Shown: positions 29,401-59,700, counted from the stretch's first letter. The stretch: DNA of 64,000 nucleotides from Mytilus trossulus (GCF_036588685.1 NC_086376.1:9920001-9984000), one strand, 5' to 3'. The notes: a model not told the origin generated them from the letters alone. Program-made: numbers and translations.

Positions 29401-29622
29401 GTTTTTATTGATAAACTCATAAAATCCGGTATTAAATGTTCACAGCTTCGAGAAAATGTTGATATGCTTGGTTTTTTAGCCGATAGGATATTTAACATTT
29501 TAACAGATTCTGGTGACGTGAAGGACTGCCGACCACTTCTCTCATCTTTATTACAAATTCAACAAGAATCAGTAAATGTCACGAAAAACGTTTTTGCGTT
29601 CACTAAAAAGTTCACAGTATAA
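26459..29622 (+). CDS. Ariadne-like RBR E3 ubiquitin ligase, paralog 2, ~896 aa. Exons 26459-26523 and 26997-29622
   Basis: Same architecture as paralog 1. 65-nt first exon MVQKKSKRGVHSGNTLRASNS AG|gtgagt, acceptor ttgcag|GTTC. RING2 CPKC..EILGGVCSFMSCPCGAYFCWEC. Confidence 0.9.
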
Positions 29623-33700: not shown

Positions 33701-36700
33701 ATTGGCCCCCAAAAAGGGGGGTTCCTACCCCCGGACCAATCCGCCACTGCAAATTACTGATCTGAGAGTATTCCAAGTTATAAAAGTTAGTTCAAAGACA
33801 ATTTACTTGTAACTTAAATTGATTTCGTATACATTTTCACGTTTATTAGGTACTGGGATACCGTATAGAACACCTGGTCAAAGTTCACGGAATAAGAATG
33901 GTAAGATTAAACGTCCAATGAATGCCTTCATGATATGGGCAAGAACAGCAAGAGGAAAGCTGGCTGAAGAAACCCCAAACGCATCAAATGCTGAAATAAG
34001 TGTCAAATTGGGAGAGTTGTGGAGTCATTTGGCAAAGGAAGAGAAGCAGAAATACTACATGGAAGCAGAAAGGGTAAAAGCAAGACATAGACAAGACTTC
34101 CCAGGTTCGCAGTATTACAATTCTCTCACAAAAGTACCAATGAAAATTACAGATATATAGTACTATTTTTAACCCTGCATCAAATGATAAAAACTATTCA
34201 CAAAAAAACAATTTTTACATCATTTTCCATAAAATCATCGATACACTAATTTATTTCTGTCAACTTTACATTTGATATATTGACTGTGAGAGGAAGAAAA
34301 ACAATAAAAGCGATTCTCCTATGGTACTCAGTGGGGTTTTCATGTGAATGATATTTTATACACCATCTTCTTTTCCCCCAACAAGCTAGTGCTTCAAAAT
34401 TTGTGAAAATCAATAAAATTTTAGGCGATGATGTGTGCTAGGATTGAGTTAAAACAATTCTAGACTAGACTATTGGAATATTTCATAGAAATCCGTATTA
34501 TCGAATCTAAATAATGTTTGCCATACAGTAGGTTTGATTTTTTTATGAGGGGGAGGTGGGGAGTTCATAGGTTTAAATTATTTTCTAGATGCTATCATGG
34601 TTTATAATCATTAAAAAAAATATTTCAAAAAAGGATGGCTATAAAGATGTTGTAAAAACAACCGCGAGGATAAGTTTAACAGAAGAAAAAAAACTAAAAT
34701 AGATTTCAATTCAATATTCATCAAACCATTTTCTGTACAATAACTTCATATCTTTAAGTGCTAGGTGAATAAGCATGCATAACTCTTTATTTCATATTAA
34801 TCAAATTAATTCTTAAATCGATTCTATTATGATTCAAAATTGCCATTCAATTTCTTATAATCTTTGAAAAAATGTTTGCTCTTTTAAATAGTTAACAGTT
34901 TTTACTGTGGCATAATGCTTATCCCTTTCAAAATCTAAACCATTTAAAACTGACGGGTGGTTCCATACAAAGAGTAAACGAAATACGAAGATACCCAACA
35001 GAAAAAAAAGAACATTTGAAAGCCGTTTTGATTTGTTTAAAAATTGGACCTTGATTTGATTTATTTTGTTCTTTAACGAATCAGAATTCAATTATTCTAG
35101 ATTGGATTTATCAACCAGAGCCATCAACAAAGAAAGGCGTTGAGGAATGTGGTACCACTCTCAATCACAGACAGCTATGGAGTAAATATAACGAAAGTCG
35201 ACCAAAAATGGCTCCAAGTCAGATTGCACCGACACCTCAAGGACCTTTCATTAACTTTATTGGACAACAAAACAGACCAATATTACCCCGCAATGTAATG
35301 CCTATTCAACCTGTAACAATGCTACCTCAAGGTAACCAGTTTGTCTGTCCGCCAGGACTACGAATCGTTCAACCAATGCAATATCCCATGTATGGACAGC
35401 AATTCCAGCCGAGGAATTTCTTGAATGGTATGTTAATTATATTTACCTGTCCTCTATACAGCAACACGTATTACTATGATCAATTATATATACATCTCAG
35501 CAATAACCAGCCATCTTTATATACGCAAGACTGAATATCATATCACATTTTTATTCAACTGTATTTATCATTTAGGGCATTTTATACTAGTAATCATACA
35601 TAAAAATCAGTTACTAAAATATTTGGGTCTAATCAGTATATATATATGTTACAGGCATTTTCTAGATTTAGGCATTTTGTAACATATACATCCATATAAG
35701 ACTTGAGATTATTATATATTATTTTTTTATTCATGCTTAGGAAATCAGATTCCTTATCAAGACGTCCCAAGATTACAAACAGCAGGAATACCCGACTACA
35801 ATGCCGTACAAAATGTCACAATAATACACCCCAAGCCATTTCCAGTTCAAATACCAGCTCCAAGAGGAAGGCCGCCTGTTGTCACTGAAAGACTTAAAGG
35901 TATGTTTAGTTAGAATGACTATAGATATCATGATCATCATTTAACATGTATTACTTAAAACAATGACTCGGGAAAGTAAGGTCTAGACCAAAATAACGAA
36001 AAGTCAACATTGACCAATAAATCATAAACAAATTCAGTTGCACACTTTCGGATGGACATGGTCATTCATGATTACCTTTTTTTTTAAAATTAGGACATGT
36101 GATGTCATTGACAATGAGATAACTATCTATCAGAGACCAAATGAAGCGGATTCAAGCAAATAAAGGTAACCGTACGACCTTCAACAATGAGCATATACCG
36201 TATATTCAACGGAAAACGGGCTCGACATGTTAACATATTAAAGAATATATGAAAGAAAAAAATGGGCTGATTTATGCATAACAATAAGCGAAAAACATTT
36301 GCACCTGTCCTAAGTCAGGAATCTGATGTACAGTAGTTGTCGTTTGTTTATGTAATATATACGTGTTTCTCGTTTCTCGTTTTGTTTATATAGATTAGAC
36401 CGTTGGTTTTCCCGTTTGAATGGTTTTACACTAGTAATTTTGGGGCCCTTTATAGCTTGTTGTTCGGTGTGAGCCAAGGCTCCGTGTTGAAGGCCGTACT
36501 TTATAACCTATAATGGTTTAATTTTTAAATTGTTATTTGGATGGAGAGTTGTCTCATTGGCACTCACACCACATCTTCCTATATCTATGAAATTAGCAAC
36601 CAACGACAAACACTGAATTACAAATTCCTGACTTGGAACAGGCATATACATGGAAACTGGTAAAGTTAACCATTAATTTCTCTAAACAAATTATTTTGTA

Positions 36701-39700
36701 TATCACTATAAAATTTTAACAGACGTATACACCTTACAATCATTTTCAGTGGTAAACGAACTTGACTAAGAAATTGAGTTCAAGGACGACAGACATATGC
36801 CAGAAACTTCAGACCATGGCATGAGTCATTTGTATTTTAGATGTGGATTATTCAGTTTATCTACCTTATGTTCTGTGCTGCGATATTCTTCGCAGACGAG
36901 ATAATGTAACAAAAGTTATATACTAGTATATGCGAGGAATACTTGTGACAGTTGTGTTCATGCCCTGTGACAGTGAGCTGAATTACCGATTTTTGGCTAT
37001 ATCGTCTATCAATGAGTATTATTTATTTCTGCATTACATACTACACTAAATAATTCATGCTTTTCTTGCACACATATATCATTTTTATGAATTCAGCTGT
37101 CCCAGCAAACTTACAGGCAAAGATTCAAGCTGAAGCAGCAGGGAAAACAGATCATCATCCTATCGTATTGGAAAGCAAAGACTGTAATGCAACGGAAAAG
37201 AATGAAAAGACAAATAAAGAATGCAAGAAAGATACACCAGAAACATCTGATAATGGAAACAATGACAAGCCAGTAGAGGATAAGGAGCAAAAGACAAAGA
37301 AAGCACAAAGGACACGAAAAAAAGACAATGATAATAAAAAATCGTAAGACATTTGCATGTTAACATTTATACCATATGTGATATACTTAGCAACCATCCT
37401 TAGAACTATTCGTTCGACCTATTTTACAGAACTATTCAATTACCATGGAATCGGTTCAATCCCACATCTAGTTTCAATTGGTGTTATTTATATCTTTTGA
37501 TAAATACTAGCCTATGTATCTCATCTGTCAGTATTTTTTAAAAGGAGTTGTTTTTTCTCACTTATATGCCAAAACGGCAATCTTTTGCAAAATAGTCATG
37601 TAGATTTTTCTTTAAATAAATGGATTAGAATGATGATCTTCAATCTACAACCTGTGATTGATGTAGCAGAGTATCATAAGAAGTAACGGATTCTGAAAAA
37701 AAAAGTAATCAAAATAGCTTGCAGTGTGTTTATATCCTTTCCCTTAGACAATATGTATATTAGTTAATTGAAATGTTAGTTAAAGAAAACGCATGATTGC
37801 ACCAAACAACATTGCATTTTGTTTTTAATAAAATATGGTTCTAGATCTTCAAAGAAATCAAAGAAAGCAGACCAAAGTAACACCTTAGACACAGACAAGA
37901 CTACCGATGATGATTCAGAACTTGCCTCTACCACTCTTCCCGGAAGTACGACACAGCTGAGAGAGGAACATCCAGAAGACTTTTGGCCATTCCCATTCCC
38001 ACCAGCAGAGCAGGAATCTCACGTGGACGATATGTTTGAGGGTAATAACTTCTTATGAAATTTTATATTTCCAACAATTTTGACAAATGAATGAACGAGC
38101 TTGTTATAAAACCAAGAAGATACTGCAACATGAAAGAAATCTAGTTGCAGTCCAATCATTTACAGCTAATTTTAGTACCAGACACATTCCATTGTCATAA
38201 AACCGGTTTAAGTAGAATTTATTTCATATCAAGTTATGATTTTTTTTTCAAGCTATTATGGTTTTACTCATTTTGTGATATATTATAATCGGAATAGCAA
38301 TACGGTTATTAAAGGGTTTTTGTACTGTTGTCTCTGTTTCTATTAATAACAGTACTTTACCTTACCTTTCAGGTCCAATCGATGATACCATAGTAGAAAG
38401 AGATCCATATAATACCTACTTCTGTAGAGAGAAGGAAAAGGGAGAAGACGATAAACTAAATGTAGATGTCTCTAGGTAAGAACCTCTTCAGTAGCATAAA
38501 CATTGTACCTACTTCTTTAGAGAAAAGGAAAAGGGGAAGACGATAAACTACATGTAGATGTCTCTAGGTAAGAACCTCTTCAGTAGCATAAACATTGTAC
38601 CTACTTCTTTAGAGAAAAGGAAAAGGAGGAAGACGATAAACTAAATGTTGATGTCTCTAGGTAAGAACCTCTTCAGTAGCATAAACATTGTACCTACTTC
38701 TTTAGAGAAAAGGAAAAGGGGGAAGACGATAAACTAAATGTTGATGTCTCTATGTAAGAACCTCTTCAGTAGCATATACATTGTACCTACTTCTGTTGAG
38801 AAAAAGAAAAGGGGGAAGACGATAAACTTAATGTAGATGTCTCTAGGTAAGAACCTCTTCAGTAGCATATACATTATACCTACTTCTGTAAAGAAAAAGA
38901 AAAGGGAGAAGACGATAAACTAAATGTTGATGTCTCTAGGTAAGAACCTCTTCAGTAGCATATACATTATACCTACTTCTGTAGAGAAAAAGAAAAGGGA
39001 AAAGACGATAAACTTAATGTAGATGTCTCTAAGTAAGAACCTCTTCAGTAGCATATACATTGTACCTACTTCTGTTGAGAAAAAGAAAAGGGGGAAGACG
39101 ATAAACTACATGTTGATGTCTCTAGGTAAGAACCTCTTCAGTAGCATAAACATTACCTACTTCTTTAGAGAAAAGGAAAAGGGGGAAGACGATAAACTAA
39201 ATGTTGATGTCTCTAGGTAAGAACCTCTTCAGTAGCATAAACATTGTACCTACTTCTTTAGAGAAAAGGAAAAGGGGGAAGACGATAAACTAAACGTTGA
39301 TGTCTCTGGGTAAGAACCTCTTCAGTAGCATATACATTGTACCTACTTCTGTTGAGAAAAAGAAAAGGGGGAAGACGATAAACTTAATGTAGATGTCTCT
39401 AGGTAAGAACCTCTTCAGTAGCATAAACATTGTACCTACTTCTTTAGAGAAAAAGAAAAGGGAGAAGACGATAAACTACATGTTGATGTCTCTAGGTAAG
39501 AACCTCTTCAGTAGCATATTCATTGTACCTACTTCTGTTGAGAAAAGGAAAAAGGGGAAGACGATAAACTAAATGTTGATGTCTCTAGGTAAGAACCTCT
39601 TCAGTAGCATAAACATTGTACCTACTTCTTTAGAGAAAAAGAAAAGGGAGAAGACGATAAACTACATGTTGATGTCTCTAGGTAAGAACCTCTTCAGTAG

Positions 39701-42700
39701 CATATTTATTGTACCTACTTCTGTTGAGAAAAGGAAATAGGAGAAGACGATAAACTATATGTAGATGTCTCTAGGTAAGAACCTCTTCAGTAGCATAAAC
39801 ATTGTACCTACTTCTTTAGAGAAAAAGAAAAGGGAGAAGACGATAAACTAAATGTTGATGTCTCTAGGTAAGAACCTCTTCAGTAGCATAAACATTGTAC
39901 CTACTTCTTTAGAGAAAAAGGAAAGGGGGAAGACGATAAACTAAATGTTGATGTCTCTAGGTAAGAACCTCTTCAGTAGCATATACATTGTACCTACTTC
40001 TGTTGAGAAAAAGAAAAGGGGGAAGACGATAAACTTAATGTAGATGTCTCTAGGTAAGAACCTCTTCAGTAGCATATACATTATACCTACTTCTGTAAAG
40101 AAAAAGAAAAGGGAGAAGACGATAAACTAAATGTTGATGTCTCTAGGTAAGAACCTCTTCAGTAGCATATACATTATACCTACTTCTGTAGAGAAAAAGA
40201 AAAGGGAGAAGACGATAAACTTAATGTAGATGTCTCTAGGTAAGAACCTCTTCAGTAGCATATACATTGTACCTACTTCTGTTGAGAAAAAGAAAAGGGG
40301 GAAGACGATAAACTACATGTTGATGTCTCTAGGTAAGAACCTCTTCAGTAGCATAAACATTACCTACTTCTTTAGAGAAAATGAAAAGGGGGAAGACGAT
40401 AAACTAAATGTTGATGTCTCTAGGTTAGAACCTCTTCAGTAGCATAAACATTGTACCTACTTCTTTAGAGAAAAGGAAAAGGGGGAAGACGATAAACTAA
40501 ACGTTGATGTCTCTAGGTAAGAACTTCTTCAGTAGCATATACATTGTACCTACTTCTGTTGAGAAAAAGAAAAGGGGGAAGACGATAAACTTAATGTAGA
40601 TGTCTCTAGGTAAGAACCTCTTCAGTAGCATACACATTGTACCTACTTCTTTAGAGAAAAAGAAAAGGGAGAAGACGATAAACTACATGTTGATGTCTCT
40701 AGGTAAGAACCTCTTCAGTAGCATATTCATTGTACCTACTTCTGTTGAGAAAAGGAAAAGGGGGAAGACGATAAACTAAGTGATGATGTCTCTAGGTAAG
40801 AACCTCTTTAGTAGCATAAACATTGTACCTACTTCTTTAGAGAAAAAGAAAAGGGAGAAGACGATAAACTACATGTTGATGTCTCTAGGTAAGAACCTCT
40901 TCAGTAGCATATTTATTGTACCTACTTCTGTTGAGAAAAGGAAATAGGAGAAGACGATAAACTACATGTTGATGTCTCTAGGTAAGAACCTCTTCAGTAG
41001 AATATACATTGTACCTACTTCTGTTGAGAAAAGGAAAAGGGGGAAGACGATAAACTAAATGTAGATGTCTCTAGGTAAGAACCTCTTCAGTAGCATATTC
41101 ATTGTACCTACTTCTGTTGAGAAAAAAAAAGGGGGGAAGACGATAAACTAAATGTTCAGGTCTCTTTGTAAGAACCTTTACAGTAACTTATACATTGTAG
41201 ATGCAAACAGGGGTAATTTTACTTTCTTAAAAAATAACCAAATAAATACAATACTATTACATAGCTATTTGAACAGAGTCTAGACCAATCATAACGTTTT
41301 CATTTACGATTTAAAAAGTATTACCTAGATTTGATTAGATTGTATTGAGATTTATTTTGACCAAATTTTAACAGTCCGAAATGTTGTTGTTATATAACTT
41401 TTTAATAAACCAACTTTTGATATTTGAACATTTTCCTAGAGTTTTGAAGTTGTTTATAAATCTTTTTGTAAAAGTTATTTTTTACTAAGTGGATATGTGC
41501 ACTAATTTTGTCTTCATATCCATCAATACTTTGTGGTATCCTCATAGAAAAAGAAATTTGTCAGCACAAAGTCTACTAAAATTATAGAAGGAAACCAGCA
41601 TATATAGATATAGGAAGTTGTGGTGTTAGTGCCAATGAGACATCTCTCCATTCAAATGACAATTCAAAAAAGTAAACCATTATAGGTCAATGTACGGCCT
41701 TAAACACAGAGCCTTGGCTCACACCGAACAAGCTATAAAAGGCCCCAAAATCACTAACGTGAAACCATTCAAACGGGAAAGAAAACGAGAAACGAAACAC
41801 GTATAAATTACATAAACAAACGACAACTACTGTACATCAGATTCCTGACATAGGACAGGTGAAACATTTGCAGCGGCATTAAACTTTTTAATGGTATCAA
41901 ACCTTCTCCCTTTTTCTGAAACAATAGCATAACATCACAACATAGAAAAACACACGATAAAACATCAATTGGCAGGCTTAACTAAGTCAAAAAACGTAAA
42001 TTAATACACTATGACCGAATAAATTTGATCTGCGATATCTGAATGCAAATGCACAGTTAATAAAATATTAGGGACAAACATTCAAGGCCAAAAATATGTA
42101 TTTTTGTAAAAAAAAAAAAAAAAATGTATCTATTAGTTCTGGTAATGAAACTAATTTCAAATGCAAATAGTATGGTGTCTTCTTTTGATTCAACACTTCT
42201 ATATTTTTCAGCTGGCAACAATACTTAAGACATGACCAGCAACAAAAACCTTCGGAACAATCAGAGAAGCTTGACACGTTTTTTGTTGAAGAGAAAGCTG
42301 AGATTGTTAACTGTCCTAGTGACTTTGATATTTGTCCGATACCTGTGGCTTTGACTCTCACAAGGCAGGAAGACGACAACAGACAAAATGATAAAATGGA
42401 TACCAGTTTTGGTAACAGTATAACAAATGCCATCAACGTTCTTGGAGGACACGAAAACGAGGAACGTTATGAAAGCAATTCTGCCATTGAAATAGATTCC
42501 GAAAATAGCAGCTCCGACTCAGACATCAGTTCAAAAAATATGGTGATAGATTGTAATGATCATTCTGATAGTTATGTAAACCATAATGCAATCTCTGGGA
42601 GACAAGTCACCGCACCAATGGATACACGACCCCTTAAAAAGCGTACTAATCGGTATATACATAATATGGAGGATAGCAATGGGACATTAGGTGAACAGCA

Positions 42701-42806
42701 AATCTCACGAGACCAATCGAAATCTCATTCCAATGCAGGGAAATACATTTCTATTCAAATTGACGATTGTCTATCACAGTTAAGAAAACCCATTGGCACT
42801 TCGTAA
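30720..42806 (+). CDS. SoxH: SoxH / Sox30-like HMG-box transcription factor, ~757 aa. Exons 30720-31110, 33850-34104, 35101-35427, 35741-35899, 37097-37343, 37845-38041, 38373-38475, 42212-42806
   Basis: HMG box KIKRPMNAFMIWARTARGKLAEETPNASNAEISVKLGELWSHLAKEEKQKYYMEAERVKARHRQDFP|DWIYQP. The WAR, NAEISV and FPxWxYQP motifs are Sox30-type. All GT-AG junctions are phase-compatible and total 2274 nt. Pro/Gln-rich region follows the box. Confidence 0.85.
32049..32530 (+). mobile_element. 5'-truncated L1/Tx1-like retrotransposon 3' end
   Basis: Remnant LVFGYKISEEEYFDLNYFLTIVGFSIYK resembles an L1/Tx1 ORF2 C-terminus. aataaa at ~32492, poly(A) 32515-32530, flanking direct repeat aagaataaga. Confidence 0.55.
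32558..33576. mobile_element. HINE/DINE-like element with degenerate internal tandem repeats (SoxH intron 1)
   Basis: 5' hairpin tgcttcgctgagcgca, sub-terminal IR atatgacagca / tgcggtcgtat, GAC microsatellite at 33508-33525, recurring ccccaaa..cc/agttatt motifs. Confidence 0.55.
33612..33750. mobile_element. Short MITE with CAG ends (hAT-like)
   Basis: TIR caggggcggat / atccgccactg, GC-rich interior. Confidence 0.6.
36298..36588 (+). mobile_element. Interspersed repeat, with an inverted copy at ~41603-41875
   Basis: cacctgtcctaagtcaggaatctgatgtacagtagttgtcg...ggcactcacaccacatcttcctatatcta is the reverse complement of the 41.6-41.9 kb segment. End fragments also at ~60168 and ~63360. Confidence 0.75.
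38413..41200 (+). repeat. Tandem array of ~30 x 93-bp units made of SoxH exon-7 3' end + splice donor + intron start
   Basis: Unit gtaagaacctcttcagtagcataaacattgtacctacttctttagagaaaaggaaaagggggaagacgataaactaaatgttgatgtctctag. The first copy is the real exon 7 end. Internal block duplication at offset ~1207. Confidence 0.95.
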
Positions 42807-43669
42807 TCAGCTAAGTTTGTTCTATATGGTTGATATGCGTTTTGATGTTTGCATTCAAATGGTAAAATTGGACTATTTTGAAAGACTATTGTTAAACTGG
42901 GGATCATAACAAGATCTTTTTTATAAAGTTTTCTATTGAAATTGATCATCTTTTATTTTAATCTATTGCGTCTGGCAGTTGCATATGGAACACATAATTC
43001 ATGATCAAGATGGTCAGGGAACTTATCATAACAAGAGTATGTTTAGTCCACTTCAAACTGTATAGTATGTACATTCTTAAATTTGCAATACATGCAGATC
43101 TTCCGTTTTAAACACCTTTGCAGTTAAGTGTCAGGATGACATTGATCTTTGTTGGATATTTTTATTCTTTTGTAATGTAATTTTTAGGATAAATGAAATA
43201 CTAGTATTGTGAAAAGTTTAAGGCTGTGAAAGGGGTTTGAAAACAATTTTATCTCGAAATTTCGATATTTATATAATAAAACATGATAAAGTTTACTTGA
43301 GCATGAAAAGTGTAAAAAGGAACATGTCTGATTTCATGATGGAAGAACTGTATTATCATATAAAAGTTCTAGTTCATAACTTTTGTTTCATAACTGAAAC
43401 TTCTAAATTTGTGCTGTCATTCTATTAAATAAGCTCGTTTTCTTGTCTTTAAAAGTTTTTTTATCGAACTCCTTATTATAGACTGGTTTTCAGCAACCTC
43501 GGATTTGGCGATTCGTGTCGTAACTTTCTTGTTCCCTAGATATATCTTTAACTTGAGAAGCTGATTTTTACATTCTCATAATATCCTTACTGAAGAATAA
43601 ACCATCATATTTGATAGCAAATGAATATGATGATAATGACCAATCACTAATTAGTGACACTGCTATCAT

Positions 43670-43906
43670 TTGGTTTAAAGTTCAGGTGAACGAACTTTTG
43701 GAACACTGATTTGCCTTTTTTGGTTCGTGGTTCAGGTGAACGAACTTTAGTGGTAATGCTTTCATTTGGTTTGCAGTTCAGGTGAACGAACTTTTGGAAC
43801 ACTGATTTGTTGCACTAAATGCCTTTTTTGGTTCGTGGTTCAGGTGAACGAACTTTAGTGGCGATGCTTTCATTTGGTTTGAAGTTCAGGTGAGCGAACT
43901 TTTGGA
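43670..43906. repeat. Five copies of ttcaggtgaacgaacttt in an alternating dimer array, directly 3' of the Cdc25 stop
   Basis: Cores at ~43681, 43731, 43777, 43839 and 43884. Confidence 0.85.
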
Positions 43907-43928
43907 TCACTTGGTTGTATAAAGGTCA

Positions 43929-46900
43929 TCAGGAATACAGACAGAAAGGTATTTTCTTTTTCTCTCCAGCAGTCCACGATTTAGATTTAGACCGAAATCG
44001 TTTGATGTCATCCACATGGTCTTTGTGTAGCATGGGGACATAGTCAACTGGTTCACATAGTTCCTGAAACATTTAAAAAAAATGTAGCTCATACAAACAG
44101 AAGTGCCATAAATCGTACTTATTTAGAAAGAAAGAGCTGATGGGTATGCTACCCTTTACAATTAACTCTCAGTTAAAATAGTAACTGAGTGTAATATGTA
44201 TTGATTGCTATCACTAGCAAAATACACTTGTAGGACATATGGAAGTTTTTAACAACCTTGACTGGCTATACAGCCCTTGCACGGTCGGTACTAGTAGGAC
44301 TACAGTATCATTACTGACTTGGAAAAAGCACTTTGAAAATGATATTCACGTTCATAATTACAACATGTCTTTAACACATTTAGAAATTGCATATTGTGTT
44401 CTTGAAATAAACCCAGTTAACTGTTTAATCACACAAGATACCGAGATAAATTGACAGATTGAACTAAAATATAGTTATAAAAACAATTGCAAAGAGTAAC
44501 GTAACTTCATGTAGTTTCAAAAATGACAATAATATGAAAGTATACTTGAATACGATTCATATGTTGCACGTAGATAAAATATGATTATTACCTTATGGTT
44601 TTGGTAGAACTGTTTGTAGCCTCCCTCTAAAATGTACATTTCAGGAAAGGTTAAGAGCGGGTAGCTATTTCGTTGACGGTCTATATTACGGAGAAATCGG
44701 CAACTGTTGAAGAAGAAAAAATACAGTTGTAGTATTGTCATTGCTTTGACAAAGTTGGAACATTTTCGTGAATATTGAAGACAAAGTTTTACTTTTGAAT
44801 CTAAAGTTAAAAATCGATCAAAACTACGGGTAATAGTTAATGTTAAATGGTTAGTGAAAATGTGAAACCTGAAACAATACATGCCAAACGATATACACAA
44901 CGTATACCAGTATACGATGTCAAATATTCGTATGACAACAGTGTGCACTTACAGCTTGGGTCCTCTTTCTGATGAAAACTCGCAATGAAAAATGAGCACT
45001 TGTCTTTTCGTTACGTCACAATTATCTTCTAGGAATTCTATTATTCCATTTTTTGTATAAATATTTTCTGCATTCTACAAAGAAGAAAAACAACCAATTT
45101 ACTTAAAGGAGTATCTATCTAATGGACTTCTTTGTATAATATACTTTACTGATATCTGTATACTGAAGCAATTAAAACAATCTAATAAGTGGTCATTCTT
45201 CCTGTCATATTCTAATATATATTTTTCCTTTCTATACCTCAAGCAAAACATGTTCTCTGGCCTTTGTTAGTCTTGTATTATTTAAATTTTAGTTTCTTGT
45301 GTACAATTTGGAAATTAGTATGGCGTTCATTATCACTGAACTAGTATATATTTGTTTAGGGGCCAGCTGAAGGACGCCTCCGGGTGCGGGAATTTCTCGC
45401 TACATTGAAGACCTGTTGGTGACCTTCTGCTGTTGTGTTTTTTTATTTTGGTCGGGTTGTTGTCTCTTTGACACATTCCCCATTTCCATTCTCAATTTCA
45501 TTTTAATTTTATACCGAAATTTTGGTACAGGGATATATTCAATTACATAGATAAAACATTTCGTTTGTCCACATATATATAATGTACCATTAAACTATAT
45601 ATTTGAATGGTACTGTTTTATGCCACAGAGGCTTAGAATGCTATACATATGGATATCCTTGTACTGACCTTGATATGCCCACCTTCATATTCATAGGGGT
45701 ACCTGCAGTCAATGATACGATAACGGGATATAACGTCATCATAACTACCATTTATAACGCTTGACATCTGAAAAATAAAATTAAGATTAACAGTCTACAG
45801 TTTTAGTATGTTCAACAATAGAATTGACTTGTGGTCAATATAGATAGGTCTTTACAGAAAAATCTGCCGTTTTCATTGTCTGCAATATCAAGTTTAAAAT
45901 GCAGTGCCCTGTCTAGCAATTGTTGAAAGATAGATTTATATAGAATAGGTGAAAAACATCATTGAAATTGATTGATTGATTAGTGTTTTCTTATTGTACA
46001 ATGGCAAATATTTCATTTTAGTTCATTACGAACATCATTGAGGCTATTTGCCACAATAGGAAGTTTGAGCAGGGTTGAATTTACACAAACTTACAGTATC
46101 ATGCGAGATAGTCTTTAGGTCAGGGTTTTTTCCTGTCATTGCACGAAGGGCATACCGTCGACTCCCGTCTCCTATCATATCATTGTCGCCTGATATGTCA
46201 TTTACAACTATCTCCGGTTCAATAATCTGATCACAAATCATATCCTGAAAAAAAAAAAACTAAACATTAGTAAAAGATGGCGAAAGATAACAAAAGGACA
46301 GTCAAACTCAAAATTGAAAACAAACTGACAACGTCATGGCTAAAAATTAAATCGACAAACAGGCAAACAATAGTACACATGACACAACATAGAAAACTAA
46401 AAAATAAACAACAAGAACCTCCGATATCAGGTGTTCTGGAAGGGTAATCAGATCCTGCTCCACATGTGATACCCGTCGTGTTGTTAATGTGATATCAAAT
46501 ACGGCAAATAGTCTAATTCGGTAGGTCACATTCATGAAATGGAAGGGGATTGTAGTTACGACGTAAGGAACATATCCGATATTATTTGTGAAACGGTTAT
46601 TGCATAACGGTCAACCAACTCGTGATGGCGTCCGTAAAATTTACGAAGGGATGATTTCAACTTATCCATTTGAAACTCTTGGTTTAATAGCTTCCTTGTG
46701 AGCAGCAACCCTCTATCAAGAAAATCATGATAGGGCATCTCGTATCAATTGGAGATATATACCCCGTATGCAGGTGCTGCTGGAATGTTGCTTCTTAGAA
46801 ATGGAAAGTTCACAATTGGAAAACTGAAATCATCTCTTGTGTCGTAAAGTTTTGTTTTCAACCGACCCTCATTGCCAATTTCTAGATGTAAGTCAAGATA

Positions 46901-48220
46901 TGAGGCCGATTTAACTGTCTCTGCATGTAGTATCTTTTATCTCTAGTGTAATGGGATAGATGCGTTCATGCACATACTCACATAATTTTAATGCAGGAAT
47001 TTGAAGAGGAAAATAATAATTGTAAACAAACATGTACATCAAAGAAATATAAATTCATGATAAAAGAAGTTGTTTTAATATCTAATCAATTTCTTTTCAA
47101 CTTCGAAAAAAATTTGTACATATGGACACATATTACTAGTAATAGAAATAATTTTAGACAGTTTTTACATACCCCGAACGACAAAGATTGTTTAAATCTT
47201 TTGACAGGATGAAGTCGTGAAGGACTACCAAGATTTGACATAAACGGAGATCGTTTTGTTTTTCTGTAAAAACTATCATTCTTGTCCTGGAAAATGACGT
47301 AAATACATGATTGATTTGCAGTGAAGTCAGTCGACATACTAATAAAATGGAGACTATAAAAAAAACTAGATTCTCCAACGTAATTGATGTCTACAAATAT
47401 CTTATATCATGTGACGCTTGATGAATCACTTGGGATATGCACATATAGAATATGACTGGGTTAAATATGTTACTGTACGCATATGCGCAACCCTCAACCT
47501 AAGCTGAGTCATAAGTGCAACTGCACAACATACGCACTTACTCAAAATATCAGACGAAAAGAAGCTTGACTTCTCAGATCGATACCAAGCATATAACAAG
47601 TAACAAAATACTAAACTACAAAGTACTGATTTGAGAGTACTCGCAGTTATACTGCAAATGAAAAAAATCATGCATCGAAGACAAAATATTAGTTAGTACA
47701 CATCCGATGGATTTTGTATAGAGGCGTCATGAAATTCTATGAAAACATGCCACTGCCCAATTCCAAATGAATTGATAACAAAAACAATGTTAGAAGCGAT
47801 AAAAACAATATGCAGAGATCGTTGGCTGCTAACTTCACAAAAATGTTCTTATAAAGTTATTTTAGAATAAGTTAATTCAAATGACCGATAAGCTTACATG
47901 TATCGAAACTTTTCTATGAAGTCTACAAATAAATTTATAAATGGTTAAGCAAATAAATATTTTCTTCACAAGACAAAATTCTTGTGCGTCATCGAAATTT
48001 AACTTTTTCATGTAGGTATGCAAAGTTATCGAGGAAAGGAATTTTTTTCTTATAATTTAAAAAAATAATCTAAACAGAACTGAGAAAGTCTGTGTTAACA
48101 GTTGTGTTCCGTTTGAGTATGCGTTACCTTTTGAAGAAAGTCAGGTGGAGAGATTAAATCTGTTATATCATCTTCTTCATAATCCATTGCTCGACTGGGT
48201 AATTCACATAAAACAGACAT
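43929..48220 (-). CDS. cdc25: Cdc25 (M-phase inducer) dual-specificity phosphatase, ~274 aa if started at ATG 48220. Exons 48248(48220)-48128, 47286-47173, 46244-46095, 45767-45669, 45074-44953, 44703-44592, 44063-43929
   Basis: [16 protein letters not shown], catalytic [35 protein letters not shown]-terminal [24 protein letters not shown]. All junctions are GT-AG and in phase. The start codon is uncertain, with possible upstream exons 48517-48446 and ending 48584. Confidence 0.9.
46275..46975 (-). mobile_element. Penelope-like retroelement fragment (RT C-terminal region plus flank), in a Cdc25 intron
   Basis: Minus strand reads [55 protein letters not shown], then (frameshift) [40 protein letters not shown]. 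Confidence 0.8.
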
Positions 48221-48897
48221 ATTTCTTTCATAGGAATTACCGTGAATGCTGAAAAAAGGAAATCAGGTATAATGGTTTTGATTGGGTCCCATAAAAAAAA
48301 CATGTGGTAGATAATTTACATGCAGAAGAACTCTGGAAACAAATAATTGAAGTGATATCTAAACTAGTTAAAATACGAAAAAAACTTATACACTTTATCA
48401 ATATAAGAATAAGTTAACATGAATAGAAAACTATATATGCCTTACCATCTATTTGGCAAATCAAATGTTAGTAAATTTGAAGAGGTTTGAGTTTTTATCT
48501 TTATATATATAAGCGTTCTAAAAAAAATGTCCAATAATAACGGACCAATTATCAATTTCTCACCTTTTAACAATTTTTCTCACCTTGTTACAAGATTTTT
48601 GCCTTATCATAACACCTTGAGCCACAAACAGTTTACCGAGTATACGAGCCGAGTGAGCAGACGTGTAAACTGCTTTTAGCTGTGACACACGCGGATCGTC
48701 ATTGCTTATATTCAGCCAACAGCCATTTTGTAAGATCTGACACCAAGCAACACATCAGCATAATCGTTTTCATTGTTTTGACTCATTTTTGAATTGTTAT
48801 TATGTAGATTAATTACAATTATCATAAACGTGTCTTATATGTCTATAGGGCTTTAAATAAAAATACATATTACAGAAATAATCAAATCAAAGAGTTA

Positions 48898-50360
48898 GGC
48901 AGTGGCTATTTGACCGGCTCCGGCTAAATATATATAGCAAATTTGCTATTTGACCGGCACCGGCAGCATAGTAAATTTGCTATTTAGCCAGCACTGAATA
49001 AAACTGTTCATTAATGTGATTAGCAGCGAAGAAAAAAGCTTAATAATAATTAAAATTCATTTTATCACAATATAAAGCATTATAAATATAGTACAATAAA
49101 AAAAAATATTGAAGATGTTCATAACTAAAAAATTTATAACTTTATAATATCAATTAAATGCATGAAAACAAATTTGTTTATATACATTACTAAATATATG
49201 TCTTTTTCTAAAATATTTTAAACCTATGATACATCATTACTCTATATTACCAAATTTTGCTGAACACTTTCTGATTGCCTTAAATTCTGTGCGAACAGAA
49301 CGAGACCTCAAGACAAGTGGTATATTTCATAAGAGAACTCTGTTTCAGCATTCTCGAATGATTTACCTGAATATAAATATCAAGATTTGTGACACCATAT
49401 GCTTGGACATATATCCTGAAACAGTTTTCACTACGGTCTGAAGTAAAACTGAAGCAGAAAGAGAGCAGTGATAGAGAGATTATATGGACCACTACAACAA
49501 ACAGTCATCGGTCTTCCAAAAAAGAGGACCCGAAAAGCAATTGCGGATCAATTCACATAAGAAAAGTTCCAAAGAAATCGGATTTCTTTTATAAGACGGT
49601 TTGTTGGAAGCGATTTAGCAAAAAAATGCTGCTGATAGCAACATTTTAATAACCGAGGAACAAATTGAAGCAAGACCTGTCTTGTTTGGACTCAATTGTA
49701 AACCGTTTAATTGATTTAATCAAAAAGTATTGTCAAAAAGATGCATGGGTCTATTTTAAAGAGCGTTTATAAAGAGAAATAACAGAACCCTATGCACACA
49801 TGATACAGATTCAAAGGAAGCAAGTGTAATGTGTAGTTCCTGTGTGGAGTGGCAACATTTATCTTGTGCTAGATTAAAACAACTTTCAAAGGCAAAGAAC
49901 TGGTTTTGTAGCAATTGCAAATGTTAAATCATGTGTCCTTTTCAAATCGTAGCAAACAACTTTTAATATTGTCTTTTTTAGGATGTACGTAGTTTTACAT
50001 AACACTATATTTATAGCATGGCAAGATATTAAAACGGCATAGATTTTACACAGATTTGGACATCAACCTTTTTATAAATATTTTTGAAAAGAATATATAT
50101 TTAAAAATGTATATACAAATGTGTTTTCATGCTTTTAATTAATATTATAAAGTTATAAATTATTTATTTATGAACATCTTCAATATTGTTTTTGTTAATG
50201 TTCTCAGTGTATTTCTAATGCTTGATATCGTGAAAAATGATTTTAAATTACTATTAAAAGCTTTTTATTCTCTGCTAATCATATCAATGAACAGTTTTAT
50301 TTAGTGCCAGCTAAATAGCAAATTTGCTATTTTGCCTGTGCCGGTCAAATAGCCACTGCC
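48898..50360 (+). mobile_element. Decayed Mutator-like (MULE) DNA transposon, 1463 bp, with PHD-finger remnant
   Basis: ~300-bp TIRs starting ggcagtggctatttgaccggc. 9-bp TSD aaagagtta (48889-48897 / 50361-50369). 49793-49927 reads CTHDTDSKEASVMCSSCVEWQHLSCARLKQLSKAKNWFCSNCKC*. Confidence 0.85.
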
Positions 50361-51243
50361 AAAGAGTTAACATTGTAAAAAACTTTCAATTTTAGTTAAG
50401 TACGGTAAGAGACGGTTAATACGGAACTATTTTAATAGTGAATATAAAAGTGAAGGTTGTTATTCAACACTGACTAATATAATGTAGGAATAGTATCACT
50501 AAATTTACCATTTTAAAGATTTTATTACATATCACACTTGTTTTTCGTTGATTGTTTTAAAAATTGTGATTTCTCGTTTAAATTGTGCTGCATTTGCTAA
50601 TTCGGGACTTTTATAACTCGCTATATTGACAAGACTAGTATTGTTTTTTTCCTGTTTTTGAAGGCCGAAAGATGACCAAAAGTTGCTAGATCATTCGTCA
50701 TTTGGTTTCTTTTGAGAGTTTTCTCGTTAACTTCGCACCACATTTTCTAATTTTTAACGCATTTGCAGGTCCAACAACAGATATTCTTAACCCCTGCTGA
50801 CTGCCATGGCCCATGCAAAATAAAAGGATCACAAAATTGATCTTAATAATTAATTTAATTTTCAACTGAAAACAATAAATTTGCGAAAAAGATGGTATAC
50901 TACATAGATCAGGTACAAAAAGTACATATCCAGATTTCGACAATTCATTTCACTTCGGTGAAGTTGGGAATCGAAACGGTATTTTCTATGAATTTGAATG
51001 TCCCTTTGGTATTTTTTGCCCCTTTTAATATGCCCATATGTCATTGCTATAATCGCCATTGTTAATCAAATGACAATTGGGGAGAGCTGTTTTTCCTCTT
51101 CAAATGTTTGTACAACTGTTTTATCTCCATGAATCTTGGTTCTCCAAAGATAATTTCTGTGATATTTTCTCAAAAAGAGTCTTTCCTATTTTTCCTCGAG
51201 TCATCTGAATTTAACGCAGAAAGCAGGTTGCAATACAAGGTAT

Positions 51244-54200
51244 CACGGCCGACACTCGGCTAACCGAGAGATATGTCGGTTAATCTATATTGAGTATGCG
51301 GCTATATCGGCGGTGGGTCTGTTAATCGGGTTGGCTAAAGTCTGTTAATCAGGTGTTATCGTGAAATTCAGTACAAGGTCAGCATGTTTCATTGTATAAC
51401 TTTTTAATTATATTTATATCATAAAAACTATTCATGTCTGACAAGATGATTTGGAGTACTGAATCCAGTGGTGTAATTATTTTTTTTCTAGCTTCAATAA
51501 ACGATCTATAAAATGAAAAGGCGAGTTACTCATCAGTAAATTTATACACATTTTACACACACAAAATGTACACAATAATGACAAGTTGGTTGAGTTTACT
51601 TGCATGCAATCTTTTAAACATCGAAAAAAGACTGGCATTATGTTTGTTTACCATATTAACATCAATATGTGAAAAATCTACACGAAAAACTGTATTTTGG
51701 TGACATAAATCAATTTTTAATAAAAATATGGTCTGTTAATGGGTCGGATGTATAAAACTCGGTCTGTTAATTGGTCTGTTAAGAGTTCTGAATGACATTA
51801 CAAGTATAATTTAATTGTTATATGGGGTGTTATCTGAATAAAGAGATGGGCCCAATATTAGTGGCTAGAAAAAATGGAAACAACACATGAACAATGAAAC
51901 ATAAGTTTAGACAATGGAATCTGAAAATTGATAAAAATGATTTTAAAAAGTGTAAGATCAGAGTAATATTAATTTCATCAAAGAATGGTCGCATATATCA
52001 TGTGGATTCTGTTTTATTGATATGAATGGCACCAATTTGTCATTTACATAGTTAACAAGTACATAAATCAGAGATAAACTTCGTAATGTTTTGATTTTTT
52101 TTATCAAATGAACTTAAATATGTTTATAATGCAAACAAATATAGACAAACCTTTCAACATCAACCTTTCTCTACACCACCTTGAAGGTCACTCGATAGAA
52201 AAACAAGCACGTTTGCGGAAGTCCTGTGAGTCGGCTAAATGACTTACGATATCATTGGAATACATCATTACTCGAAAAATTAAATTAATATTATGCATTT
52301 ATTGTGATTTACAGGAATATAAAATTGTCTTGTTGTTACACATTAAATCAGCACCCAACACTAATATAAAAAAAAACTTACTAATGTCTATTTCTTGTTT
52401 AGAACCACGGTTTAGAACTTGGTTCAGACATTTCTTTAGGCGGCAGAAAATGAGAATGATGACTCGGTACAAAGGAAAATACATACTGGAAATAAACTCC
52501 ACATAGATAACAGGATTGAAATTTGATATTTGCGCCTAATATTTACGCCAGACACGCGTTTCGGCTACGAAAAACTCATCAGTGACGCTAAAAAAGTGTT
52601 TAAAAGGCCAAAAACATGTTGAAAAGCATCGAGGAAATACAACTAATACCGGCGTCTCACATCAGCGTATAGCTCCGGCGTGTTAAAATTCATTTACGCT
52701 GCCAATATGCTTTAAGCGTGAATTGGGCGTACTAGATGCGTACCTAAGTCTAAACGTTTATCCGGCGTTCAAGAAACGTATGTTGGCGTATGTTGTGTGT
52801 GTTTTAAGCTGCATAAAAATTTCCTCGGGTTGTAGCATTCATCAAGCGTATTTACTTTCCTTCAGTGGCTAGAGGTATCGGGGGAGGGTTGATATCTCAT
52901 AAACATGTTCATCCCCTCCGCAATTTTGCGCCTGTCCCAAGTCAGGAGCCTCTGGCCTTTGTTAGTCTTATATGATTTTTAATTTTAGTTTCTTGTGTAT
53001 AATTCGGAGTTTATTATGACGTCCATTATCACTGTACTAGTATGCCTACGGGTGCGGGAGTTTCTCTCTACATTGAAGACCCATTGGTGGCCTTTGTCTG
53101 TTGCCTGTTCTTTGGTCGGGTTGTAGTCGCTTTGACACATTCCCCATTTCCTTTCTCAAATTTTACCTTTGTATTTCGACGTACTTCAAACTTATGCAAC
53201 GCGCTTTGGACGATTGCTCAGCGTTCCTATGGCATGCAACTATCATAACAGGAAAAAGATTGATATTTGTGTACTCCATATATTATAACAAATGTATTTG
53301 ACTCATTACAACGATGTAAATGGTATATGGATTGTGTGTATATTGTGAAATTAGCCGTTGTGTATGTTCCCGACGGACTCTCAACAGACGAACTACATCT
53401 GTGAGAGCTGGTTCTGGGTTTTTAAATGATGTGGGGAAAACTAGCTGTGACAATGCCAAGGATGGTACATGGCATTGCTGCCGATATAGAGACAGGCCGG
53501 GATCGACTGACACCTAGAATATCAAGAAACTCGCTATTTATTCAATAAACATAACATCAAAGAAATTACAATATAATTTCAAAGTACACATTTTGAAGTC
53601 AAAATAAGTTGAAAACAATAATAAAATACTACAAACAATTTCAATTCAATACCAAATAATAACAAAAATACTTACTGTTAAAATAAACATCTGAATTAAA
53701 ATATTAGTTACTTGTAAGCTTTATTTATTTGTTCAAAATAAGATTAAAAGAAAAATAGTTTTAAACCTTTTAATGAATTGCAGAGACATTTTTTTAAAAA
53801 TAAAAGTGCTCTTTCTATAAGGATACTGTTGCACCGTATTGTAATTTTTTCGTCATAAGTACATCTCATTGTTTTCAATGTGAAAATATAAATTCTAGGT
53901 AGTAAGACTATTGTCGTGGCTAAATAACTCTTTAACTGACATGATTTAAATTGTCCAACCCATTAACAGACTGTACTCCCCTAATATTCATTAAAATGTG
54001 GTATAACTCAACTTATTTAACAATTATGAAATATTTATCAATGACAATTGATCTTTTAGAACCAAAGTACTACTTTGTGTCCTTTAAATCATATCTTAAA
54101 ATGGTTTTTGGCCTTTTATCTAAAATATTGCTATGCGTACAAGCATAAAAACCACATACTTGCACGACGCCTTTTCGTTTTACTTAAAATTGCGTAGGCT

Positions 54201-54447
54201 ATGCATTTTTTTTAATGGTGGAAAATGTTCTATGATAAATATCATTTTGTCAGACACTTTTCTTTTTTTGATGTGATTCTCATAATGTGCCAAAAAATCT
54301 GTATATTTAACAGAGTTTAACATTAAATTGTGAGTTTTACTCTGAACAGACTTTAGCCAACCCGATTAACAGACCCACTGCCGATATAGCCGCATACTCA
54401 ATATAGATTAACCGACCTATCTCTCGGTTAGCCGAGTGTCGGCCGTG
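51244..54447. mobile_element. Non-autonomous Transib/RAG-superfamily-like transposon, copy 2 (3204 bp)
   Basis: Same TIRs as copy 1. Different 5-bp TSD GGTAT (51239-51243 / 54448-54452). Colinear with copy 1 except 53242-53765. Confidence 0.85.
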
Positions 54448-56732
54448 GGTATGTCATACCCCCTTTCCACATCCAGGTGAATGCAGAAGTTGTCTCCAGC
54501 CCTTAAAGTAAGAGGCGGGATAAGCAAAACTTCTGAACGTGAAAGGAACTGTTTCTAAAAGTTTAGTTGTTTTTTCTCCACCGCTGCTCTCATGGATGCC
54601 ATCAGGAACGTGTATATATTGACTGACAGGTTTACTGTTTCCAGACACAATATAATTATGATTATGGTTTTGTTTTTTATTGACTTTGTGATCTATTTCA
54701 CGGTAGTTGAAACTGATTTTCATGTACAGATTTTTATTGCATATTCTTTTGATGCATCAAACACATAGTAATACACCAAATGTATTTAAAAGAGTTCTAA
54801 TGGCAAATCTTTGATAGTGCCTTTTTATTAAATTGGGTTACTGTCTCATTGATGTATACCCTACACATCTGTATATCCATATCATGGTCAGATGACGTTT
54901 GTCAATACAAAAACTCTTAAATCCATGTGCATTGTAGTTTGTCCATCTGTTCTTCCTTTGGAAAATTTAGACATGTTGGCAAATATGACTGTAGGTGGAT
55001 TTGACATCTTTTCAGCCATAAAGTTCTTCGTCTGTTTTTGGGTTCTTATAAATCTTTGGCTTTTAAATAATCTGGTTTAAGTGTTCAGGATGAAGATAAA
55101 TCCATTGTTTTCAATAAGTGAACACATTTGCTTCAATTGTCAGATAAGTATACATTTGTTTTGCATTCTGTTACCTGAATGTGACGAAAAGGTCAATAAG
55201 AAATACAAATTTCTTCTCATTTGGTTGATTAGTTTTATCAATTGTTACAATATTTTGTAAAATTGAAGGCAATGTCTCTGGAAAAGTAAGGGAATGAAAC
55301 TTCAATTCAAAATAACATTTCATTCATTTATTAATTAAAATCTATTTGGTCCAGTGGTTTTCTATCTTTCTGTTGACATGTGCATCACTATATGCTCTTG
55401 ACCCTTTCAGACAGAAAGTATGTGGGCAGTGTATGAACATGACTATTTAAGGAAATCTCTTCTTTAAAGTAGTGTCAATGTGTGTCAGTGAAATCACTTA
55501 TCTAACTATCTGTGATTTCCCTTTACTAATTTTAAAAGAAAGTTTCACTGAAAGAATGGGAGTCATGAATTTTGAAAGATTTGGGCTTATATATAGTTAT
55601 ATAGAAAGTATTTTAAAAGTATTTTGGCATAACTTACAAGTACTGCATGGGGTATCAACTAAGCATTGAACACTATGGAGAAACAGATTAATGATGATCT
55701 CTTTTTTCAAGACAACTTGAACTCATATAATTCTGAATGGAATCAATTTAAGACAGTTTCAAACTTGCCAAAGCCATTGCTCAAAGCAACCTTTGATCAA
55801 AGACTCACAAAAACCATAGAATAAATCAAGATTGACAGCATTAACAATGGAATTTACAATGACTTATATTTCCGAGGGGAATAATCCCTGTGATAATAGT
55901 TGATTTGAAGAATTGAGAGAGCTTCCAATCATAGAGAGATAGCTTATATAAAAAATAACAACTATACAAAATTCAAAATTGAAATATGCTTAGCATACTT
56001 TAAGATTTGAAATCAAAAAGATATGGACACTTAGTGAGAATGACATGGAAATCAAATCATAAATTTACATTTTCTAACTTAAACATGATCATTGGGTACA
56101 CCAAAATGGGTAATTTGTTGATATCAGTGACTACGTAAAGCTAAGCTTTTAATTATAGGGGAACAAGAAAATAGCTTTAACTTCAGAAAATACATCTCCG
56201 TACAAATAATGATATCAAAATTAAAATTTGAGTTTTTATTTTTGTGAAACTCATCATGGTGCAATAATAAAAACATTTTAATTTTATAAATAAAATGAAA
56301 GATAATATGCATATGTTACATCAACGTATATACACAGTTCAATTTGACATTGAATACAATTTGGTAATGAGATAAAATGTTATAGTATGACAAAATGCAC
56401 ATTTCTGAAATTTTCTTAGATTACCAAGTCAGTCTTCATTTAGAGACACATTATATGTACTCATAAAAAGACTATGTACTGTGGATTCATCATTATTCAT
56501 AGGATACCATTTTTCCTGGATTTTGTGGGTACAGGCCGTCTATAGCTAGGTGAACCATGATTTCAAATGTTCAATAAATAACAAACTTCCCAAAGGCTTT
56601 TTATGCAGTGATTGACAAAACCACAAAAATTAAATATCCACAAGAAAAAATTAATACCAAATTAAATAAATGAATCCAGAGTACTGTAATGTGGCTTGAA
56701 TCTGATAAAAAAAAAACATTAATTGATGGTGT

Positions 56733-59700
56733 TCAAGCTTTTGGTTTGGTTTCCTGATCACTGACATTCCTGATATATATAGAGTCCTGAGGAATATCCA
56801 CAGCATCATCTGTTTCATGCATGTACGAAGAGGCAATCGCAAGAACTGATCCGTCATGGCTGAACATAAGGGAAGCAATACTGGTAGGATATCTGTAAAA
56901 CATAAACATAATCAGGCTGAACATAAGGGAGGTAATACTGGTAGGATATCTGTAAAAATAAACATAAACAGGCTGAACATAAGGGAGGTAATACTGGTAG
57001 GATATCTGTAAAACAAAACATAAACAGGCTGAACATAAGGGAGGTAATACTGGTAGGATATCTGTAAAACAAAACATATACAGGCTGAACATAAGGGAGG
57101 TAATACTGGTAGGATATCTGTAAAACAAAACATAAACAGGCTGAACATAAGGGAGGTAATACTGGAAGGATATCTGTAAAACAAAACATAAACAGGCTGA
57201 ATATAAGGGAGGTAATACTGGTAGGATATCTGTAAAAATAAACATAAACAGGCTGAATATAAGGGAGGTAATACTGGTAGGATATCTGTAAAACAAAACA
57301 TAAACAGGCTGAACATAAGGGAGGTAATACTGGTATGATATCTGTAAAACAAAACATAAACAGGCTCAACATAAGGGAGGTTATACTGGTAGGATATCTG
57401 TAAAAATAAACATAAACAGGCTCAACATAAGGGAGGTAATACTGGTAGGATATCTGTAAAAATAAACATAAACAGGCTGAACATAAGGAAGGTAATACTG
57501 GTAGGATATCTGTAAAACAAAACATAAACAGGCTGAACATAAGGGAGGTAATACTGGTAGGATATCTGTAAAAATAAACATAAACAAGCTCAACATAAGG
57601 GAGGTTATACTGGTAGGATATCTGTAAAACAAAGTGTAAACAGTTGACAATGACTTGTAATTTGAATTAAAAAAACAATTAGAATATAAAGTATTTACAA
57701 GATGCTCAATAATGGCTTTTCAATGTTGCAGTTTCTCCTATAAGGTCGCTGTGCAATTACTTCAATAAACATATAAAATAAATAAAATCATAAATTTTTT
57801 TTATTTAAAAAATTGATAATCTTTAAGTGGATGATTGATTGTTTACTTTTTGTCTGTCAGTACTTATTCCAAGTATTCTGTATATTCATTGGCTAACATG
57901 TTTCTTAGATACAGATCATGTCTTTTTCCATGTTTCGAATTTGGAAACACATTTGAATTTCTTTTTGAAGAGATTATTTCAGCACCCACCTTACAACTGT
58001 AAGTTTTTATTTATTTAGAATATTTACTTAAGGAGGCTCGCGGGTATAAGATTTTCAGAAAAAATTAAACATTTATTTTTTTATTACAAATTTTATTAAT
58101 TACCTTTAGTAGTTGGTACTTTATCATATGGAACAGAAATCAATTCATGTTGGCCCCAGGTGACTTTTAAAATGTAGATATCATTGAAAAAGCTACAAAT
58201 TATCTCCCTTTGGTGCAAAAATGACATTTTTGGCATTAAAATTGAAATATTTGTTTTAACTCATCGGTGACCTATATTTTTTTATTGTTGTTTTCAATTA
58301 AGCTGTAAATAAACTAAAGAATTGTAAAATTTAAGCGATTACTGTAATTTAGTTCTTTTTTAATTTCGATATCCCCACTTTTCTCCTATCAGTTCAACAG
58401 AAAAAAAGGACATTAACAAAAATGTATGCTTGTTTCAAAGGCAGATTTTGAGCGTAAATGAACCGTGACCCCATTTTTTTATTTCATTTTTCTACTAAGT
58501 ATAAGATAAAGTTCATTTATAGAAAAATATAGCAAAATCCTATATTAAATAAAAAAAATGATTTGACCTGTGAGCCCCATTAAAGAGTAAAAGTATTAAT
58601 TTTATGTGGTTATCTCAAATGGATAATTTGATCTGTTTGGTTTATGTCATATACTATTTCTGATGTTATGTCACTTATCTTGCTTACATACATATGGCAT
58701 GACTGCTTGTTAGATTATTTTAAATCCTATTCTGTGATATGTATTCCCTTAAATTTCTTGTTTAGATTCTTAATGTGACTGTTGTAATAAAATGTAATAA
58801 CTTCTGCTTTCATTTATGAAGTGTCAGAATTGAGAAAATTGAAATGAGATAATTGAATACCACAAAAAAATAATTTCTCTACAGTCAATTACCTGTGAAA
58901 CTGACAAAGTCGTTTTTTATTAAATCCGTCCCATATATTGACATAACCATCAGATCCTCCTGAAGCAAAAGTATTGTGTTGTGCGTGGAAAGCTATAGCA
59001 TTTACAGGATAAATCATTTCTACTCCATTCTCTTTGATTCTGTGACATTTAAATGCATATTTCTTCTTCTGAACTTCAGGACTTGGGTCTAGGTATTCTA
59101 CAGCTACTCTACCTATAAATACATAAATAGAAATATGACAAGCCAGGACTAGTTTTTTCTTTTCCATAGAAAAGATAAACTGAGGACTTTCTTTATGAGA
59201 ACTGCAATGTTCTCATTTAGTATCATGTTAATGTGATACTGCATTGCTGTAATGTGATATCATCTGCTGATTATTATCTGGTATTACAATTTCTACCCAT
59301 CTATATAGGGTCAAGTGGGCTAATATGAAAGGATGGGAATATTGCCATAATGTCCTCTGGTATAACAAATGTCAATCAGTGGATCAAATGCAGATTAAAC
59401 TTAAATTTGACAACGATAAAAAGCTGAACAGCTTTACAACCACTATACACTAGAAGGAGGTATAAAATGTTCTTTCTGTAAAACTGCACACAATAAGGGA
59501 AAATATTTGTAAGAGTGGCATCTCAGAAACAGTAAAAAAAACCCACCTATAGCTACCATTTAATACTTTTAATTTAAAAACAACCTAAATTAACAACATA
59601 ATTTACCTTCAATAGAACTTAAAACATAGCCGTTTTTATTTGGAAAACATCTGATACATCTTGTTTGATATTTGAGACTTGATTCTCTTCTCTGTTGTAC

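Follow-up and report, generated by a model that had tools for sequence, protein, structure and literature searches.

Why should two unrelated genes lying close together each carry a long tandem array built across a splice junction? The question arises from a 64,000-nt stretch of the Mytilus trossulus genome (GCF_036588685.1 NC_086376.1:9920001-9984000), which we call the window and on which all positions given here are based. As the original prediction made from this DNA had described, two long arrays straddle splice sites and extend into the intron; our analysis gives 30 x 93 bp at a SoxH donor and 14 x 56 bp at a BUB3 acceptor; the names that it gave to SoxH, BUB3 and the neighboring Cdc25 were confirmed by protein and domain matches. 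The likeliest mechanism for both arrays, which we hold to be probable, is that a duplication crossed each junction by chance, that the arrays then grew by unequal exchange, and that they survived because the original splice site stayed in use.

Arrays across a SoxH donor and a BUB3 acceptor

SoxH and its donor-side array (array A) comprise the following features:
30720..42806, + strand: SoxH / Sox30-like HMG-box gene, 8 coding exons, 757 aa (exon model)
38373..38475, + strand: SoxH exon 7, 103 nt, phase 1 to phase 2, its donor being the authentic site (exon model)
42212..42806, + strand: last SoxH coding exon, whose acceptor joins the authentic exon 7 donor (exon model)
38413..41197, + strand: array A, 30 units of 91-93 bp (tandem-repeat calls and unit alignment)
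38784..41197, + strand: 13-unit higher-order duplication within array A (lag analysis of unit differences)
38613..38660, + strand: unit 3, an example of a predicted 48-nt phase 2-2 in-frame cassette (sequence layout)

The 8-exon SoxH model read from the window yields a protein identical to the 757-aa RefSeq entry XP_063432093.1 (P0001) of M. trossulus, and the last exon, used as a query, retrieved a 757-aa M. trossulus protein at 100% identity. The product matches HMG_box (PF00505), members of its protein cluster are named 'putative SoxH' and 'SOX15_30', and SoxH has been reported as male-biased in M. edulis (PMC11470919, cited, like the other papers below, from the parts available to us).

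Each unit of array A joins the last 63 nt of exon 7 to the first 30 nt of intron 7, and the array lengthens this intron from 1044 to 3736 nt. Among the 30 donors, 25 are identical to the authentic exon 7 donor, and reading past the first donor gave an immediate stop at the next codon in the three later donors that we translated. Selection against the decoy donors was considered and rejected, because 4 derived alleles over 9 donor columns as against 30 over the 84 others (P 0.42) amount to background-rate decay. The exonic part of the unit also permits a cassette layout (an AG, 48 nt in frame without a stop, and a GT, in phase 2-2), which is present in 14 of the 29 extra units, while the remaining ones have lost the cassette AG (14 units) or carry a frameshift (1 unit). 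Pyrimidines occupy 9 of 11 positions ahead of the three cassette acceptors that we checked, compared with a mean of 7.8 at 12 genuine acceptors, and the spacing from a donor to the following cassette acceptor is 45 nt.

By comparing the units with one another, we found a mean pairwise difference of 6.7 positions and a strong periodicity. At a lag of 13 units, the mean falls to 2.56 differences versus 5.4 to 6.8 at other lags, a value reached by none of 20000 permutations; units 5-14 and units 18-27 show 0 to 2 differences, with the likeness fading toward both ends, and identical pairs (5 of 435) all lie at lag 13. The edge units are the most diverged, and the last one, which runs into unique intron, has 14.3 differences. 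The lag-13 pattern reflects a single duplicated block of about 1.2 kb. Block duplication is the usual mark of unequal exchange in minisatellite turnover.

BUB3 and its acceptor-side array (array B) comprise the following features:
58893..59112, - strand: BUB3 exon 5, whose donor partners the array acceptors (exon model)
56733..56892, - strand: BUB3 last coding exon, authentic acceptor at 56892 (exon model; tblastn with P0061)
56859..57643, - strand: array B, 14 units of 56 bp, the last of 57 (tandem-repeat calls and unit alignment)
56911..56915, - strand: branch-point-like CTGAT (YTRAY), its A at -20 of the authentic acceptor (motif scan; putative role)

Here the unit covers roughly the final 22 nt of the intron and the first 34 nt of the last exon, and the units are closer to one another (mean 3.5 differences). 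The acceptor AG is kept in 14 of 14 units, which places 13 decoys upstream of the working acceptor at 56892, and the pyrimidine count is 8 of 11 at the working acceptor and likewise at the decoys. Only three of the 13 decoys regain the normal C-terminus on translation. The working exon, as in most relatives, encodes Ala where the array copies have Thr, which indicates that array B diverged as a group. A YTRAY motif between -18 and -40 is found at 6 of 12 genuine window acceptors, the working BUB3 one included, and at 0 of 13 decoys, of whose possible single changes 4 of 78 could create it. This branch-point-like motif could account for the last acceptor winning and is a lead only, since the 13 decoys cannot count as independent and the pattern was noticed post hoc. 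Elsewhere, the eukaryotic BUB3 locus L066 (1330-1386), which supplies the single junction-spanning repeat of the outside control described below, carries a 28-bp two-copy duplication across an acceptor; its upstream copy has lost the AG, which points in the same direction as the last-acceptor preference.

In both arrays the repeat breakpoints show 1 to 2 nt of microhomology and lie 22 to 63 nt off the junctions, and neither distance nor motif is common to the two. No further copy of either unit was found elsewhere in the 64-kb window, the best outside match being 20 nt, so that within it the units do not behave as a dispersed or transposon-borne satellite present at other loci. The prediction had proposed a consistent polarity, with the true exon outermost, as a test; this polarity follows from geometry alone and discriminates nothing, because whenever a single junction is duplicated, the outermost copy is the only one still joined to the remainder of its exon.

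Known systems, sister species and array persistence

The class of boundary-spanning minisatellites is already published, and the SoxH and BUB3 arrays are added Mytilus examples of it. Both have the properties of the human F7 type, namely, a head-to-tail array, an outermost unit with the authentic site and a splice signal repeated intact. The first monomer lies across an exon-intron boundary in five human genes, in the F7 intron 7 37-bp variable number tandem repeat and in the minisatellites of 6-16, CBS intron 13, lamin B2 and PDGF intron 4; the first donor alone is used in three of these genes, and two more are used in 6-16 and CBS (PMC1557585, Borensztajn et al. 2006). The statement that no named system existed was thus wrong in substance, the more so since boundary repeats as a source of new introns are also in print.

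As in SoxH, the donor of the F7 class is repeated into the intron, and in the human genes normal mRNA comes from the most upstream one. The size range of the human units (31-100 bp, 5-26 copies) brackets the SoxH unit, which stands in 30 copies; however, that unit holds 63 nt of exon versus 4 nt in F7, permitting in-frame cassettes, and its preference for the first donor is a predicted one (PMC1557585). For the acceptor side, the human CBS 844ins68 resembles BUB3 in that an intron/exon junction is duplicated and splicing yields normal mRNA through a strong preference for the distal site, a preference that BUB3 would share; it differs in having two copies, through a 68-bp acceptor duplication, rather than 14 (PMC2630376, which words the CBS sites as 'donor', while the reference cited there says 3' splice-site selection). 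In potato RdRp, an intron was gained by tandem duplication across an intron-exon boundary, whereas the Mytilus window shows no new intron (Ma et al. 2016, PMC4974935). In human paralogs, internal tandem repeats at exon-intron boundaries led to new introns and alternative transcripts; they match the general claim of minisatellite expansion at boundaries, although they belong to primate segmental duplications and measure on average 4 x 30 bp, and we found no test of enrichment at junctions in the available parts of that paper (De Grassi and Ciccarelli 2009, PMC2812944).

The proteins of sister species, mostly gene models, allowed us to explore what splicing may make of the arrays. In 11 of 12 aligned Mytilus SoxH proteins, including those of RefSeq M. 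trossulus, M. edulis and M. galloprovincialis, the amplified exon 7 segment is single. In the M. edulis model P0049, the 16-residue exon 7 end is present 3 times, which is the exact product expected of 48-nt phase 2-2 cassettes, whereas the M. edulis RefSeq models hold one copy. For BUB3, we aligned 14 cluster and outgroup proteins (15 of the 19 cluster members were listed), two of which are N-terminal fragments, and the C-terminus is canonical in 11 of the 12 long enough to reach it. The RefSeq M. galloprovincialis isoform X2 (P0066) matches the predicted read-through of the first decoy at 28 of 28 residues, and the second BUB3 unit differs by a stop between the one M. trossulus haplotype analyzed and M. 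galloprovincialis. Because P0049 and X2 match array read-through, arrays A and B very probably exist in M. edulis and M. galloprovincialis, respectively. The transcript-like records among the canonical proteins come from species where the arrays cannot be demonstrated, and no orthologous Mytilus DNA was present among 80 metagenome BUB3 loci (best identity, 90%).

In one of the two M. coruscus BUB3 models (P0063), the 10 residues that open exon 5 occur twice; the corresponding 30 nt in the window directly precede a GT. As in potato RdRp, the acceptor would be crossed and the donor taken from former exon sequence (PMC4974935). The prediction that boundary arrays provide a general route to alternative sites draws some support from these models, and a new intron spliced between duplicated segments is implied by the gene models P0049 and P0063 alone. 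In M. coruscus-type SoxH (P0057, P0059), a two-residue insertion lies within the exon 7 segment (window 38373-38475) that is amplified here.

According to these comparisons, we propose that each array was seeded by one tandem duplication, with 1 to 2 nt of microhomology, that happened to cross a splice junction, and that the arrays then grew locally by slippage and unequal exchange. In SoxH, where a later donor of any kind would lead to an immediate stop, the first donor would win, as is seen in human F7; in BUB3 the last acceptor would win, probably aided by the branch-point-like motif that the decoys lack. The arrays would be tolerated because the original site remains the one that splicing mostly uses and the array leaves with the intron, while slight leakage to decoy sites may occur and be read by gene finders as isoforms. 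Survival through splicing, which the prediction had offered as one option, is consistent with the intact annotated proteins and with the human precedent, and a special mutational hotspot at junctions would be unnecessary.

Chance, possible hotspots and possible use of the array copies

Whether junctions attract arrays depends partly on what is counted, and a third, miniature case had been claimed at the 5' end of Cdc25, where the relevant features are:
43932..48220, - strand: Cdc25-like phosphatase gene, 7 coding exons, 274 aa (P0075 = XP_063432096.1 by tblastn; Rhodanese PF00581)
48556..48593, - strand: two-copy 20-bp duplication (1.9 copies) with donor-like sites at 48584 and 48564 (tandem-repeat call)

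The motif pair is indeed present, although the duplication precedes the annotated start codon (48220 in P0075). We rejected the motif as a coding donor, since all Mytilus models begin downstream, at 48220 or later. Another donor-like site, the third, stands at 48446. The duplication is a weak, putative third case, with candidate donor sites, and does not count as an established one. The 274-aa protein has a much shorter N-terminal region than its 344-aa scallop relative.

We then compared 15 arrays, hand-merged from 28 Tandem Repeats Finder rows, with 41 junction ends under a length-matched null; some Cdc25 and RBR positions were approximate, and counts only were used. The P values from this window are all post hoc, the window having been selected for its junction arrays, and range from 0.009 to 0.17 by array choice. 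Two of the 15 arrays span a junction versus 0.68 expected (P of at least two, 0.14), and within gene bodies (5 arrays) P is 0.17; scoring the Cdc25 duplication as real would give 0.027. As an outside control, we used BUB3 loci of other eukaryotes from metagenome contigs. Junctions could be inferred in 49 of the 80 loci (192 edges, set by tblastn ends, over 185 kb), and the other 31 were dropped; of the 44 arrays in the 49 loci, 1 spans a junction versus 1.29 expected, which is no enrichment.

Several observations weigh against chance seeding hidden by splicing. Among arrays with at least 10 copies, 2 of 4 span a junction versus 0.16 expected (P 0.009), and inside genes 2 of 2 such arrays do so (P 0.017). 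The outside control is redundant, non-Mytilus and probably short of long arrays, as contigs may break there. The X2 isoform indicates that hiding may be incomplete, and the M. coruscus exon 5 repeat suggests a second, independent BUB3 junction duplication, absent from the window.

On these grounds, Mytilus junctions might be true hotspots for the seeding or expansion of arrays, for example, through R-loops, co-transcriptional pausing or a step in boundary composition, as the prediction had also allowed. It is the large-array subset and the possible second event in M. coruscus that speak for this; the count over all 15 arrays, the choice of the window for the very feature, the flat result in other eukaryotes and breakpoints with no common distance or motif speak against it, and we regard such hotspots as unlikely. 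In our literature search, in which subscription papers were largely out of reach, we found neither a genome-wide test of minisatellite enrichment at junctions nor any account of the two Mytilus arrays, and the available parts of PMC10078293 and PMC12783039 hold nothing on junction-spanning units.

The copies might instead be in use, the SoxH units as 16-residue in-frame cassette exons and the BUB3 decoys as regulated alternative acceptors altering C-termini. The 14 intact cassettes and the pyrimidine-rich stretches at the three that we checked fit this idea, as do the two extra copies in the M. edulis model, isoform X2 and the apparent sharing of the arrays between species. However, as many SoxH units have lost the cassette AG, one is frameshifted, and the gap from donor to cassette acceptor is only 45 nt. 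Because the initial 15 exon bases of the first BUB3 decoy are the same as those of the true exon, short junction reads could be misplaced there; X2 would also cut the end of the conserved WD40 propeller. Together with the single copy in the M. edulis RefSeq models and the canonical form of 11 of 12 proteins in each of SoxH and BUB3, these points make such use of the arrays very improbable.

One-step rolling-circle amplification from an excised circle or an RNA-derived template, also raised in the prediction, would explain the constant-length head-to-tail units and the close BUB3 units, but it is not needed and has hardly any likelihood, as the units contain intron sequence, which argues against spliced RNA as the template, and the SoxH units, neither near-identical nor built of a many-times-repeated block (BUB3 being less clear), are heterogeneous with the most diverged ones at the edges and bear a single 13-unit block duplication that fits unequal exchange better.

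Neighboring features and meaning of the arrays

The window has other features as well. Positions 17642-20212 and 27043-29622 (+ strand) hold tandem IBR/RBR-type ubiquitin ligase paralogs, each with a single long coding exon, which are about 90% identical across 2.8 kb and whose upstream exons match too. A 3-kb element at 22989-25954 and 51242-54447, with two copies 92-93% identical and 103-105 bp terminal inverted repeats at 97-98%, is likely a non-autonomous DNA transposon. Just upstream of Cdc25, 48945-50353 is an element with inverted ends of about 280 bp at 84%, carrying what we take, by eye, to be a broken PHD-finger-like reading frame. Right after the Cdc25 stop, nested 46/108-bp repeats occupy 43651-43911 (- strand), and the M. 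coruscus model P0077 enters similar sequence. Three further arrays lie at 211-422 (34-bp x 6), 1098-12220 (an 11-kb array with a 35-bp unit) and 12653-13984 (26-bp x 50), and no exon link was found for any of them.

A bolder reading would be that in mussels junction-spanning arrays arise more often than chance, persist when species diverge and supply a lasting stock of in-frame micro-exons and alternative acceptors, that an acceptor array survives only if the working copy alone has a branch point, and that two genes represent intron gain caught part-way: SoxH, with its 14 ready cassettes, and BUB3, struck on two occasions, each time at another acceptor and in another Mytilus species. We consider this unlikely. 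Under the preferred account of chance seeding, growth by unequal exchange and survival through the original site, the two arrays are two further natural cases of a known oddity and a caution, as gene models drawn over such arrays come to contain extra exons and isoforms of doubtful standing. Of the two, the BUB3 array has more to offer, because its working acceptor lies downstream of 13 intact decoys and one base, the branch-point-like A, gives a direct handle on last-acceptor choice. If a genome-wide excess and real cassette use were borne out, such arrays would be an observable and countable source of new introns and exons.

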